Shown here in pieces: positions 2,867-12,923 of a stretch of DNA of 32,000 bases. The number at the start of each line of letters is the position of its first letter. The stretch's first letter is position 1. The notes below the pieces were generated by a model, which searched no databases, was not told the DNA's origin, and saw nothing but the letters and a program-made list of their open reading frames with translations. Origin of the DNA: Staphylothermus marinus F1 (GTDB taxonomy: Archaea; Thermoproteota; Thermoprotei_A; Sulfolobales; Desulfurococcaceae); contig NC_009033.1 of assembly GCF_000015945.1 (NCBI RefSeq), forward strand, positions 570,001 through 602,000. Direction: 5' to 3'. Both the position numbers and the translations under genes were made by a program.

Positions 2867-4168
2867 TTAGTCTAACTTTTTAATAACGCTTTCCTCGACT
2901 ATATTTATGTGTTCTTTAATGAGTTGATCTAGTTCTTTTATTTCATTTATTTTTCTAAAGTTTAACGGTATTATTGCGATATATTTGTTATTGTCGTTTA
3001 TAGGTATTGGTTTATGTAAGCTGTTTGTTTCTTGTAGATAGGTGGCGTTGAAGATTATTGCTCCTTTATCTACGTTGTATTCGTTCATATATCCTAGTAC
3101 TATTCTTAGCTCCCTGTATATGTCTGGTAAATTTTGTCTCTGCTTTGCATCCATAACAAATATTATTTCTTCCTCATTTCCCCTGTTAATTGTTATTATT
3201 ATATCTGGTCTGCCAGCTTCAGGTCCTCCAATTATCTGTTTGTTTCTGGTAAGCCAGCTTTTGTCGCTGAAGCCTTTACTATGATAGATCCTGTAACTAA
3301 TATTTTTCCCATTTTCCCTAACATTTACTTCTATAAATTCCCCTCTATGATCAATAACTATTTCTTTTATTCCTAGGTGTTCTAGTTTTAAAAGTAAAGT
3401 GTATGATATTAGATAATAAGTATAGATCTCGAATACTCTCTCAAACTCTGCTCCTACGACAAAACCTGTAAACCCGGATTCTCCGCGAGTAGCGATCTCT
3501 TCTTTAATATTCATGATTGTTTGAAGATACTGTTTAAAACTTTTAGCAAGAAAATAGTATCCGTAGTTTCCACGTTCAAGAACGGTATCGCATAGTTGTA
3601 GGAGTGAATCATAATCTTCTCTTTCAGCTATACCTGCTAGATCAGTTATCCATAATATACTACCATATATCTCTCTTAGATCATCAAGTATTAAACCTAT
3701 AATCTTATTTAACAAATTGTTTTCAGTCACTACTTTTTCTTCTAGATCCTCGATTATCTTCTTAATTTCCAGAGCGATATTCGCCAATAATAATGTCTCG
3801 GGAGAATCATATAGTCTTTTAATTATGCTTGATACTATTAAGAGTCTACCACTACCATAATGTACTATTGTTTTTGGAAAATTAATTCTTCCTCTAGCAA
3901 AAATATCTGTTTGCTCCTCATAATGGGTTTCATAGATCAGTTCTAATGGTATTCTTTTTAGAGTTTCTATAACTTTTCTTATAGATAAAACACGTGCAAT
4001 AAGCAAACTAGTTTTATATATGTCCCTTAAAACAGTATCTTTCACTTTCCCCCAAAATTTTACAGGATAACCTCTAACATAGCTGTAGAAGAGAAATAAT
4101 CCTATAAGCCTAACAGTAACCATATACAATGTCTCTAAGAGGCTAGAGTCTTCAGAACTTTGAGACAA
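2867..4168 (-). CDS. McrC-like PD-(D/E)xK nuclease subunit
   Basis: 433-aa ORF whose start overlaps the upstream McrB-like gene by 17 nt. The C-terminal nuclease-like motif is GRPDIIITINRGNEEEIIFVMDAKQR (D ... D-x-K). Its position immediately downstream of a McrB-type NTPase matches mcrBC operons. Confidence 0.7.
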   Translation of the reverse strand: MSQSSEDSSLLETLYMVTVRLIGLFLFYSYVRGYPVKFWGKVKDTVLRDIYKTSLLIARVLSIRKVIETLKRIPLELIYETHYEEQTDIFARGRINFPKTIVHYGSGRLLIVSSIIKRLYDSPETLLLANIALEIKKIIEDLEEKVVTENNLLNKIIGLILDDLREIYGSILWITDLAGIAEREDYDSLLQLCDTVLERGNYGYYFLAKSFKQYLQTIMNIKEEIATRGESGFTGFVVGAEFERVFEIYTYYLISYTLLLKLEHLGIKEIVIDHRGEFIEVNVRENGKNISYRIYHSKGFSDKSWLTRNKQIIGGPEAGRPDIIITINRGNEEEIIFVMDAKQRQNLPDIYRELRIVLGYMNEYNVDKGAIIFNATYLQETNSLHKPIPINDNNKYIAIIPLNFRKINEIKELDQLIKEHINIVEESVIKKLD

Positions 4169-5798
4169 TACTATCTACCATTTCAACAAGTCCTCTATAA
4201 TCATCTAGCTTTCCTACTTTCTTAATATTCACTAATGCATCAATGTATTTCTTTGGTATCATTATCTTAGATATCTCGGGATCGAGAATTGAAGCCAGAG
4301 ATCTAGATAATGCTTCATCAACAGCGTTTTTGATATCCTTCGAAATATTCATGGTAATAAGATTATATGCATCAATAACGGACTCAATTATATAAGCTAT
4401 TCCTAATGGGAAGTTGTTGTTAATAAATATTTTATAAATTTTCGTTAATTCCTCGGCAACCTCGCTAAGTCTCTGATTATCAACATTGCTGATCTCTTTA
4501 AGTACTTTCCTAGCTTTATTAAAGACTATCCTCTTTAAAACTTCTTCTTCAGAATCAGAGATTTTCTGTGGGAATACTCTTATAATATGGAATCTTCTAA
4601 GCAGGGCATAACCTAGTGTATATAAATGGGTTATATCCCATGTGTTAATTGTTGCTATTACTCTAAATCCCCAGGGTAGACTATTGTTTGCTCTAATATA
4701 TTTGAGTATTATTTCAGCAGCTTCATCTTTATCATCATAGCTTTTAATTTCATCAATAAGTGTCTGAGGCAGCCTCCACTGACTAGGATCAACTCCTGGA
4801 TATATTGTGAAGAACTCTGCTAAAACCTTATCAGCTTCACAACGGTTCAATTCATCAATAAGCAATAATACTCCTCTAAACTTCGTGTTCCCACTACTTT
4901 CATTCATATACTCAATATGTTTTGCAAGAGCTAATAGAAACACGCCACTCCTCCACTTGAACCCTTTGGAAGAAATAATTGGTCCCCCTATGAAGTCGTA
5001 CCGGGTCCATGTAGAAGAAGCAGTACTGCTTACCAATTCATAGTTGAGATAATCAGCAAGAAGTTCTGTTAAATACGATTTACCAGTACCTGGTGGCCCC
5101 ACCAATAATAAGTGTTTACCCTTATTATAACCTGAAACAATGCTGTTTAAGATGCTATCCGCATAGAAACCGTTGTTTCTCAATACATATTCTCTGAATT
5201 CCCTGTAATCAATGAGGCTTGGACGAGAAGGCTGTTGTCTAGGCTTTGTTTTCTCTAATCCTCTAGAGTGTATTGCTTCATAATCCTCAGGCCTAATAGG
5301 TACTAGATATCTCCCAGTCCATGTGATGTGGCTAATAATATCTCTAACTTGATCATACTTGACTGGATTTTCATATTTACGATACTCAGCCAGTCTAAAC
5401 AAGAAGAAACGATCACTCCTTGATGGACGTATTATTCTCCTAATAGCAATGAAATACTGGTCAATAGTATCTGAACTAATACCATTATCGAGGAAAATTT
5501 TCCTAAGCACCTTTTTGATCTCTGGCCAAGAATACTCCTTTACAATCTTATTATTCTCTTTACTAAGAACTGATTCGCCTATGAAGGTTTTACCTAAATC
5601 ATGACTAGCTCTAGATCCGATATAGTGGATTATTTTAAGCTCACCAAACTTTTCGAGAGAATATCTTATCCCCCTATATTCTGATGCGTGCTTCTTAATC
5701 ATGCCCCATAGCGTTAACCCTATATGATCCAGGGTAGGAAGTATCCAATTATTTATTTCAACCCAATATTTTGAAAACCCCAATATTTTGTTATTCAA
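4152..5798 (-). CDS. McrB-like AAA+ (AAA_5 family) NTPase with N-terminal putative DNA-reader domain
   Basis: 548-aa ORF. Walker A is LLVGPPGTGKSY, with signature VLLLIDELNRCEADKVLAEFF and FRVIATINTWD...LLRRF. The N-terminal ~200 aa shares the pattern HIG..LW...(I/L)HY..SRA...TF(I/V)G with the 540-aa paralog. Confidence 0.8.
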   Translation of the reverse strand: MNNKILGFSKYWVEINNWILPTLDHIGLTLWGMIKKHASEYRGIRYSLEKFGELKIIHYIGSRASHDLGKTFIGESVLSKENNKIVKEYSWPEIKKVLRKIFLDNGISSDTIDQYFIAIRRIIRPSRSDRFFLFRLAEYRKYENPVKYDQVRDIISHITWTGRYLVPIRPEDYEAIHSRGLEKTKPRQQPSRPSLIDYREFREYVLRNNGFYADSILNSIVSGYNKGKHLLLVGPPGTGKSYLTELLADYLNYELVSSTASSTWTRYDFIGGPIISSKGFKWRSGVFLLALAKHIEYMNESSGNTKFRGVLLLIDELNRCEADKVLAEFFTIYPGVDPSQWRLPQTLIDEIKSYDDKDEAAEIILKYIRANNSLPWGFRVIATINTWDITHLYTLGYALLRRFHIIRVFPQKISDSEEEVLKRIVFNKARKVLKEISNVDNQRLSEVAEELTKIYKIFINNNFPLGIAYIIESVIDAYNLITMNISKDIKNAVDEALSRSLASILDPEISKIMIPKKYIDALVNIKKVGKLDDYRGLVEMVDSIVSKF

Positions 5799-5805
5799 TA
5801 TATTT

Positions 5806-12700: not shown

Positions 12701-12726
12701 GGTTTACGTGTCCACCAGAAAACCAT
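9709..12726 (-). CDS. DUF1156-type adenine-specific DNA methyltransferase with Zn-ribbon (COG1743-like). The true start is probably upstream of the annotated ATG.
   Basis: 1005-aa ORF. It carries the N-terminal FWWTRKPL motif (the DUF1156 hallmark HxWWARRPL), SAM motif I [13 protein letters not shown], Zn-ribbon cysteines CPHC ... CLYC, and catalytic motif IV [25 protein letters not shown]. In-frame upstream sequence (12727..12828) encodes 34 more DUF1156-like residues without a canonical start codon; see findings. Confidence 0.85.
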   Translation of the reverse strand: [1005 protein letters not shown]

Positions 12727-12923
12727 TTCCCAGAATGAGGGTCTGCCAGGTCCTTTCTCAGCGATTGCTTTTTCCGAGATCTCGAGGCTTGGGAAGGAGG
12801 GAGTTTCTATTAGTTTCTTTTCCAGAATGCTTCACCTATCGTAGTGTTTTTCCTTATATAATAATTTATATTCTGCCTTGTAGATTAATTCTTTTTCCAG
12901 AAAAACTCTATTAGGATCTCGCT

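Follow-up and report, generated by a model that had tools for sequence, protein, structure and literature searches.

Systems built from a DUF1156 methylase, a DUF499 ATPase and an Snf2 helicase are known as Hma, and since 2026 have been described as BREX-related (BR) systems of types 1 to 3, each of which is defined with a Swi2/Snf2 helicase (Rakesh & Krishnan 2026, PMC12839542). In Hma/BR systems this helicase (HmaA) is as a rule fused to a nuclease of the PD-(D/E)XK or HKD type. BR loci without a helicase-nuclease fusion carry other, compensatory nucleases nearby (PMC12839542), and an archaeal operon with the order COG1743, DUF499, Swi2/Snf2-nuclease and EVE was described by Bell et al. 2020 (PMC7641849). 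Among McrBC relatives, those of the LlaJI/LlaI type work with methylases, and a census of McrBC showed a widespread association with methyltransferases (PMC12707154, PMC11090510); in LlaJI-type systems, McrBC components are put to use for attacking unmodified DNA, with methylation as the protection (PMC12707154). BREX and Type I operons that contain an embedded type IV enzyme are also already known (PMC12707154, PMC11090510). Here we describe a five-gene block of the hyperthermophilic crenarchaeon Staphylothermus marinus F1, in which a DUF1156/DUF499 core is followed by an McrB-like GTPase and an McrC-like nuclease. The DNA analysed was a single stretch of 32 kb with a GC content of ~35% (the window), and positions are those of this window unless a contig of another lineage is named.

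A combination of DUF499 with McrBC was not found in the literature searched, and in the accessible portion of PMC12839542 (main text and supplements) McrBC is not mentioned, with the supplements holding no Staphylothermus or McrB entry. The composite is conserved beyond one genus, and its McrBC genes are positioned like an effector replacement. It is a real, narrowly distributed variant of the Hma/BREX-related systems, in which the two modules may possibly be integrated in function.

An McrBC-type pair in the helicase-nuclease slot of a DUF1156/DUF499 locus

The block consists of five tightly packed genes on the minus strand, in the order DUF1156 methylase (MT1156), DUF499 ATPase, an open reading frame (ORF) of 149 aa, McrB-like gene (McrB1) and McrC-like gene (McrC1). 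A 31-nt gap separates the methylase and DUF499 genes, the DUF499 gene and the 149-aa ORF overlap by 1 nt in the sequence TAATG, the 149-aa ORF is followed after 7 nt by the McrB-like gene, and this has a 17-nt overlap with the McrC-like gene. The five minus-strand ORFs and the junction sizes listed in a first-pass annotation of the window were thus borne out by the ORF coordinates.

The position of the McrBC pair becomes clear from comparison with canonical loci. The order DUF1156, DUF499, small ORF and Snf2/NOV_C helicase-nuclease is present in Ignisphaera aggregans (L014) and Thermococcus waiotapuensis (L015), and the nearest outgroup (L021) has DUF499, small ORF and Snf2/NOV_C, with no DUF1156 gene called upstream of DUF499. 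The McrBC genes of S. marinus occupy exactly the Snf2-NOV_C helicase-nuclease slot of these loci, two of which have a standalone EVE gene (6466–6861 in L014 and 16967–17398 in L015). No protein with an SNF2, ResIII or Helicase_C domain was detected in the block or the rest of the 32-kb window, to which the search was confined, the rest of the genome not being searched. The S. marinus locus therefore resembles Hma/BR systems in having a DUF1156 N6-methylase with a zinc-finger insert in the target recognition domain, a full-length DUF499 protein, the methylase-ATPase order, a small ORF after DUF499 that is homologous to those of Ignisphaera, Thermococcus and L021, and the involvement of an EVE-type reader. 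It differs from them in the absence of a Swi2/Snf2 helicase(-nuclease) from the block, with an EVE-McrB GTPase and an McrC-like nuclease in its slot, in a small ORF that Pfam does not recognise as DUF3780, and in a clade-specific set of SF1 helicase, Cas4-like nuclease and extra methylase upstream.

Conservation was assessed in four DUF499-containing lineages of the clade, namely S. marinus, S. hellenicus (L001) and the metagenome-assembled genomes (MAGs) L004 and L013. The linked five-gene order is present in S. hellenicus (65–89% identity) and in the divergent L004 (38–63% identity), and the junction between the small ORF and McrB measures 5–9 nt in the linked lineages, being kept down to 46% McrB identity. 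The downstream flanks differ even between the Staphylothermus species. The recurrence of both gene order and the 5–9-nt junction in S. hellenicus and L004, at 38–63% identity, makes this arrangement more than a chance adjacency. The fourth lineage, L013, has the methylase (53% identity), DUF499 protein (42%) and small ORF (39%), and McrB and McrC were not found within 10 kb of this core. At 4928–6809 of L013, between two methylase genes, there is an OLD-like ABC ATPase (AAA_15/AAA_21) with a 252-aa protein showing a weak TOPRIM match, which form an embedded nuclease-type module.

The reverse situation was found in three contigs (L003, L019 and L020), where orthologous McrB (51% identity) and McrC (46%) genes, with the same N-terminal domain, are located among unrelated genes and without the core. 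The 30 nt preceding McrB in L003 (9970–10000), L019 (725–754) and L020 (208–237) encode ...RSLRIDKR-stop, to be compared with the C-terminus ...ARALRILLGIDKR-stop of the small ORF. A free local nucleotide search for such a relic before the L003 McrB gene did not give a significant score (30, versus 27.2 ± 2.4 for the shuffled null), and the argument for a relic draws on its constant position and on a peptide that matches in frame in all three contigs. This apparent relic of the small ORF suggests that the solo McrBC lineage descends from the linked arrangement. More distant McrB/McrC pairs, whose AAA cores show 34–46% identity, occur as autonomous units of two genes in different defence contexts. 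One distant pair (L005, 4829–9390) lies beside a TGT (DpdA-like) gene, DUF6884, a BrxC_BrxD-type ATPase, a PLD nuclease and a DEAD helicase, a neighbourhood resembling Dpd-type DNA modification.

Searches beyond these lineages returned few loci. A scan of the genome collection with DUF499 gave four distant bacterial or Methanothrix loci only, and plasmids, when searched with McrB1 and with the small ORF, yielded distant matches to the AAA core only, or none. A metagenome scan with the small-ORF alignment recovered three short contigs, with one full small ORF at a contig edge and two C-terminal fragments. Small-ORF-related C-terminal fragments without DUF499 or McrB are located beside PaREP1 and AAA_15 genes in L017 (1359–1655) and L018 (2239–2451).

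Transcription signals within the block

Signals for an operon were sought with a crude archaeal-style scan, in which TATA-like boxes were searched for at positions −20 to −45. Such boxes were found solely before the ATT start of the methylase (see below), a second McrB gene (McrB2) and the Cas4-like gene, and were absent before DUF499, the small ORF, McrB1 and McrC1. Motifs resembling a Shine-Dalgarno (SD) sequence (AGGAG, AGGTGA) precede the starts of the small ORF and McrB1, with that of McrB1 located just 5′ of, and overlapping, the stop codon of the small ORF. Along the block, no stop codon is followed by an oligo-T tract until a T5 stretch on the minus strand at 2848–2852, a candidate archaeal terminator 15 nt past the McrC1 stop. 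At the other end, a compact divergent promoter region (12829–12923) is common to the block and an opposite-strand methylase gene, and contains TATA-like boxes at −31 to −44 and an SD-like AGGTGA at −8 relative to the ATT. The lack of internal TATA-like boxes, the SD-like motifs before the small ORF and McrB, and the oligo-T tract after McrC uphold the earlier view of an operon-like block, and these signals fit a single transcription unit, short of proof.

The DUF1156 methylase, DUF499 ATPase and small ORF

The first gene (9709–12828, minus strand; called ORF 9709–12726, 1005 aa) encodes a DUF1156-type N6 DNA methyltransferase resembling HmaB and BR methyltransferases. It matches the PADLOC profiles MTase_II (REBASE-type, 2e-229) and HmaB (5e-48), its N-terminus matches Pfam DUF1156, and there is a further match to UPF0020; the Pfam DUF1156 and PADLOC HmaB/MTase_II matches bear out its assignment as a DUF1156 methylase. 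Motif I (LDPFAGFGS) and motif IV (DPPY) are present, as are two CxxC pairs within the insert. A start at the called ATG leaves the DUF1156 domain truncated, with position 28 of the Pfam model aligning to residue 3 of the called protein. Directly upstream are 34 in-frame codons, ILEKKLIETPSFPSLEISEKAIAEKGPGRPSFWE, which are kept in all homologs and include no ATG, GTG or TTG, and the S. hellenicus methylase is annotated from the equivalent ATT, which is preceded by AGGTGA. The true start is thus very probably a non-canonical ATT near 12828, ~34 codons upstream of the called ATG. With 12727–12828 being coding, the intergenic promoter region before the opposite-strand methylase gene (starting at 12924) is reduced to just ~95 nt. 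Of the AT-rich intergenic flanks proposed earlier for the two sides of the block, the downstream spacer (2483–2866) is AT-rich, and the upstream one is very probably coding in part.

The second gene (6255–9677, minus strand) encodes a 1140-aa ORC/Cdc6-like AAA+ ATPase of the DUF499 family, which is HmaC/BrxC-like. The Pfam DUF499 profile matches it end to end with 1361 bits (profile positions 6–1018 of 1024), confirming the family, and PADLOC HmaC matches the N-terminal ATPase part (2.5e-46). The protein contains a P-loop (FGGGKT) and a Walker B motif (VILVDE).

The small ORF (Smar_0574; 5806–6255, minus strand) encodes an alpha+beta protein of 149 aa, which is conserved as the small subunit of DUF499 loci in archaea. 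No profile hidden Markov model (HMM) from Pfam, PADLOC or NCBIfam matched it, and Pfam domains were also absent from all relatives examined. It has two close database homologs, and an exhaustive profile search gave 20 representatives at E≤1e-3 among 1.84e9 proteins. An AlphaFold2 (AF2) model (predicted local distance difference test score, pLDDT, of 89) consists of five strands and four helices, and gave no significant fold match in the PDB. The model resembles the printed description of DUF3780, the small protein of BR type 2, a likeness drawn from that verbal description alone, and the Pfam DUF3780 model did not match the 149-aa protein or its relatives at E≤0.05. In L014, L015 and L021, the small ORF that separates DUF499 from Snf2 is a homolog of the 149-aa protein (hhalign 91–96%, E 1e-6 to 1e-9), which places the latter in the DUF499 module and not with McrBC. 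The first-pass annotation had filled the helicase slot with the small ORF plus McrB/McrC; the McrBC genes are indeed in the Snf2 slot, and the small ORF is no replacement, as a homologous ORF is already present in canonical loci.

McrB1, its reader domain and McrC1

The fourth gene (4152–5798, minus strand) encodes McrB1, a 548-aa AAA+ GTPase of the McrB type that has a PUA/EVE-like DNA-binding domain at its N-terminus. It matches AAA_5 (1e-14) and, under the cut-off of that model, NCBIfam McrB (1.6e-7), and contains Walker A (GPPGTGKS) and Walker B (DELNR) motifs, the NxxD signature (INTWD) and RRF. Leaving aside the self-match to 6N0S and a short match to midasin, its closest solved AAA+ relatives are E. 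coli McrB chains (6HZ4, 6UT6). The AAA_5 match, the NxxD and Walker motifs and the McrB relatives in the PDB together bear out the McrB-like assignment.

Residues 3–180 form the reader domain (5259–5792, minus strand), which is a 100% match to 6N0S_A. According to the accessible part of PMC12707154 (ref 225 therein), the publication on this PDB entry presents it as the N-terminal domain of S. marinus McrB and as having PUA-like homology. The domain had been called divergent before; its structure is already solved, and is PUA/EVE-like. Between the two Staphylothermus species the reader (5199–5798) is 43% identical, versus 77% for the AAA core (4152–5198) and 80–89% for the operon proteins other than McrB1, showing that the reader evolves fast. 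The domain reportedly binds DNA with little modification specificity, having a degenerate aromatic cage and a promiscuous mode of binding. Its similarity to the standalone EVE proteins associated with DUF499 is marginal (E 0.012 and 1.9), and on these values a derivation of the McrB1 reader from such proteins was rejected as specific evidence.

The last gene (2867–4168, minus strand) encodes McrC1, a 433-aa McrC-like partner with a helical N-terminal region and a C-terminal PD-(D/E)XK nuclease. The catalytic motif (GRPDIIITI...FVMDAKQR, PD...(D/E)xK) is encoded at 3143–3208 on the minus strand, and in an alignment of six McrC-family members (McrC1 and five homologs) P321, D322 and K342 are invariant, with D or E at position 340. 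McrC1 itself had no HMM match in Pfam, PADLOC or NCBIfam, family members gave sub-threshold matches to PDDEXK_7 (9e-4) and DUF2357 (0.03–0.04), and the McrC-family profile found no match among PDB sequences even at E≤10. The AF2 model was poor (pLDDT 42) and was excluded from the fold search. The PD...DAK motif, the gene position and the 17-nt overlap speak for McrC1 as the second member of the pair, for which the library HMM searches gave no match; the label 'McrC-like' appears reasonable, and is the weakest family call in the block.

The pair resembles canonical McrBC (E. coli, and the YTH-McrB of Thermococcus gammatolerans) in its AAA+ core with Walker A/B, NxxD and RRF motifs, its variable reader of the PUA superfamily, its overlapping downstream partner with a PD-(D/E)XK motif, and in having relatives that are autonomous two-gene units. 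It differs in being co-operonic with a methylase and DUF499, and in an McrC too divergent for Pfam or PDB sequence models. With LlaJI, LlaI and BsuMI the locus shares the combination of methylase(s), McrB-like NTPase and McrC-like nuclease in one operon; those systems differ in being bacterial, with a site-specific B3-like domain and ordinary type II-like methylases, and they have no DUF499 and no small subunit. Where LlaJI R1 has its B3-like domain, S. marinus McrB1 instead has the PUA/EVE-like N-terminal domain (6N0S). Composites of BREX with an embedded type IV enzyme (BrxU/GmrSD), or of Type I restriction-modification with McrBC, likewise join a modification system to an adjoining or co-operonic type IV-like nuclease as complementary layers (PMC12839542, PMC11090510), but keep their full primary gene set, whereas the S. 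marinus core is without its usual effector and has McrBC in that exact position. The co-occurrence of a methylase with McrBC, which the first-pass annotation presented as paradoxical, is not new in view of LlaJI/LlaI and the census associations (PMC12707154, PMC11090510), and would need just an EVE reader that is blind to the host marks, or McrBC attacking unmarked DNA as LlaJI does.

Neighbouring genes and the defence island

Divergent from the block is a gene (12924–14051, plus strand) for a 375-aa methyltransferase with SPPF as motif IV and PADLOC MTase_II matches, which adjoins the block in 4/4 DUF499-containing lineages (orthologs with 49–75% identity in L001, L004 and L013). It is followed by an SF1 helicase gene (AAA_11/AAA_12, Pfam; 14074–15684, minus strand), an upstream neighbour also conserved in 4/4 of these lineages, with orthologs of 53–88% identity in L001, L004 and L013. 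A Cas4-like PD-(D/E)XK nuclease gene (15678–17459, minus strand; PDDEXK_1 1.8e-5, PADLOC Cas4-like) overlaps the start of the helicase gene, and is present upstream in S. marinus, S. hellenicus and L013 (47% identity in L013), with the L004 locus ending at that gene. The SF1 helicase and Cas4-like pair, together with the SPPF methyltransferase, might form a restriction-modification-like module in its own right, or else supply the system with its helicase-nuclease arm.

Directly downstream, beyond the AT-rich spacer at 2483–2866, there is a second McrB/McrC pair with its own promoter region. McrB2 (860–2482, minus strand), an EVE-like McrB GTPase paralogous to McrB1, belongs to a transcription unit of its own. 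It has an AAA_5 match (5e-17), a weak EVE match, the NxxD motif MNQVD and PDB McrB matches, and the N-terminal domains of McrB1 and McrB2 are homologous (E 4e-8). The second McrC-like protein is represented by its N-terminal 290 aa (1–870, minus strand), its open frame being cut by the edge of the window; it is 27% identical to McrC1 and has the ARGRI and SPExLLL motifs in common with it. This second pair is found at this position in S. marinus and is absent there in S. hellenicus, and the S. marinus island thus has two tandem McrBC-type cassettes.

None of the window proteins that were scanned (Pfam, PADLOC, NCBIfam) matched PglZ, BrxB, BrxA or BrxL; a BR type 3 or BREX system would have a PglZ phosphatase-like protein and iSTAND/BrxB. 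Upstream of the block, overlapping genes for NurA-like (400 aa) and HerA/FtsK-like (528 aa) proteins (19451–22232, minus strand) are possibly one more module for defence or repair. At 28765–30601 on the minus strand there are genes for a PaREP1/HEPN-like protein whose N-terminus is of the RHH type and for a separate N6_N4 DNA methylase of 386 aa, and the housekeeping genes pdxS and pdxT (24282–25988) mark the likely edge of the island.

Origin and possible action of the composite

Our favoured reading, to which we give a probability of about one half, is that a captured, co-transcribed McrBC cassette sits in a vacated effector slot and acts as a self-sufficient nuclease layer. The first module would be the modification and sensing core of an Hma/BR system, consisting of the DUF1156 methyltransferase, the DUF499 ATPase and the ~150-aa small subunit, which would have lost its usual Swi2/Snf2-PD-(D/E)XK helicase-nuclease. 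The second module would be the EVE-McrB GTPase/McrC PD-(D/E)XK cassette, which may have originated as an autonomous type IV-like restriction unit, and would have been captured once, in the ancestor of Staphylothermus and a few related archaea, exactly into the vacated slot, so that it would now be co-transcribed and translationally linked with the first module. The methylase would mark host DNA, with DUF499 and the small subunit sensing unmarked DNA, and the McrB hexamer with McrC would form a GTP-driven translocating nuclease, co-expressed with the core and keeping its own DNA reader. Owing to this reader, McrBC could act as a self-sufficient second layer without a strict need for DUF499, and the upstream SF1 helicase and Cas4-like nuclease may serve the BR core as its helicase-nuclease arm. 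The captured-cassette reading is favoured since the modules are separable both ways, the island accumulates McrBC cassettes and an alternative helicase/nuclease pair is at hand. Several points weigh against it. Co-transcription and independence of the modules are both properties that we infer from sequence, and the McrC assignment derives solely from the motif, the gene position and sub-threshold HMM matches. The part that the SF1 helicase and Cas4-like nuclease may play is deduced purely from conserved adjacency, and the comparative sample is small, with three linked lineages of which two are congeneric. An exact positional replacement of the Snf2-nuclease is also expected from a true effector swap, and the recruitment of a standalone EVE by canonical loci, with the EVE fused to McrB here, is swap-like as well.

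Such a swap, in which McrB and McrC would be the dedicated nuclease arm replacing the Snf2-nuclease and the standalone EVE, and would cleave DNA lacking the MT1156 mark in the manner of LlaJI, is in our view less probable. It would explain why both sides of the exchange comprise a motor and a PD-(D/E)XK nuclease along with an EVE domain, why McrBC follows the small ORF in the exact Snf2/NOV_C slot, why no Snf2 gene is present in the window, and why the tight SD-like junction is kept down to 46% McrB identity; it would also fit the EVE-like domain fused to McrB (6N0S) where canonical archaeal loci have standalone EVE genes (L014, L015; PMC7641849). Precedents are the LlaJI/LlaI systems (PMC12707154) and the compensatory nucleases of BR loci without a helicase-nuclease fusion (PMC12839542). 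On the other hand, L013 keeps the core without McrBC, L003, L019 and L020 keep McrBC without the core, and the DUF499-containing lineages have the alternative helicase and nuclease pair upstream, so that the dedicated effector role given to McrBC in the first-pass annotation is not established. The lack of a specific relationship between the McrB1 reader and the DUF499-associated standalone EVEs (E 0.01 to 1.9) is a further argument against it, and a physical coupling of McrBC with DUF499 and the small subunit is conjecture. That first reading of the block is thus partly supported overall, with the domain calls standing, the small ORF as replacement falling away and the dedicated effector role not being established.

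The separability of the modules could also mean that an unrelated type IV cassette simply lies beside an effector-less Hma/BR remnant, with the spacing caused by genome compaction and no common regulation or function. The island is dense enough for this, having the second McrBC pair, the helicase/nuclease pair, two extra methylases, the HerA/NurA-like pair and the PaREP1/RHH gene, and the region is also open to other inserted genes, for instance the OLD-like ATPase and TOPRIM-like pair of L013. Plain adjacency is nonetheless unlikely, as the 5–9-nt SD-like junction and gene order are kept in three lineages at 38–63% identity while the downstream flanks vary, McrB is not preceded by a TATA-like box, oligo-T tracts are lacking up to the end of McrC, and the relic in L003, L019 and L020 shows McrB to have travelled with the 3′ end of the small ORF. 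Least probable of all is a decaying system, in which the methylase, DUF499 protein and small ORF would be a non-restricting remnant left once Snf2 was lost, with active defence confined to the McrBC pairs. The absent Snf2 effector, the methylase without a canonical start codon and the persistence of the L013 core without a downstream effector all agree with decay, but the catalytic motifs are all intact, the long ORFs (1005–1140 aa) are retained at 42–87% identity over four lineages, arguing for purifying selection, and the ATT start with its SD-like motif is kept in S. hellenicus.

Implications for DUF499/BrxC-type systems

The S. marinus variant bears on how systems with DUF499/BrxC-type ATPases (Hma, BR, BREX) restrict DNA. 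Should each half work independently, this would be one more stacked defence operon. If instead a swap took place in this small hyperthermophile clade, which we regard as less likely than not, McrBC would be the obligate, methylation-blocked arm of a DUF499-sensed system, and the ~150-aa subunit would be an adaptor between DUF499 and the effector of the locus, of whatever kind. The published S. marinus McrB structure gains a genomic context that is not discussed in the accessible literature, and with the Snf2-nuclease replaced in its slot by a tractable McrBC with a crystallised reader, the locus offers a direct test of effector-arm modularity and also lets the small conserved subunit be tested as an adaptor.

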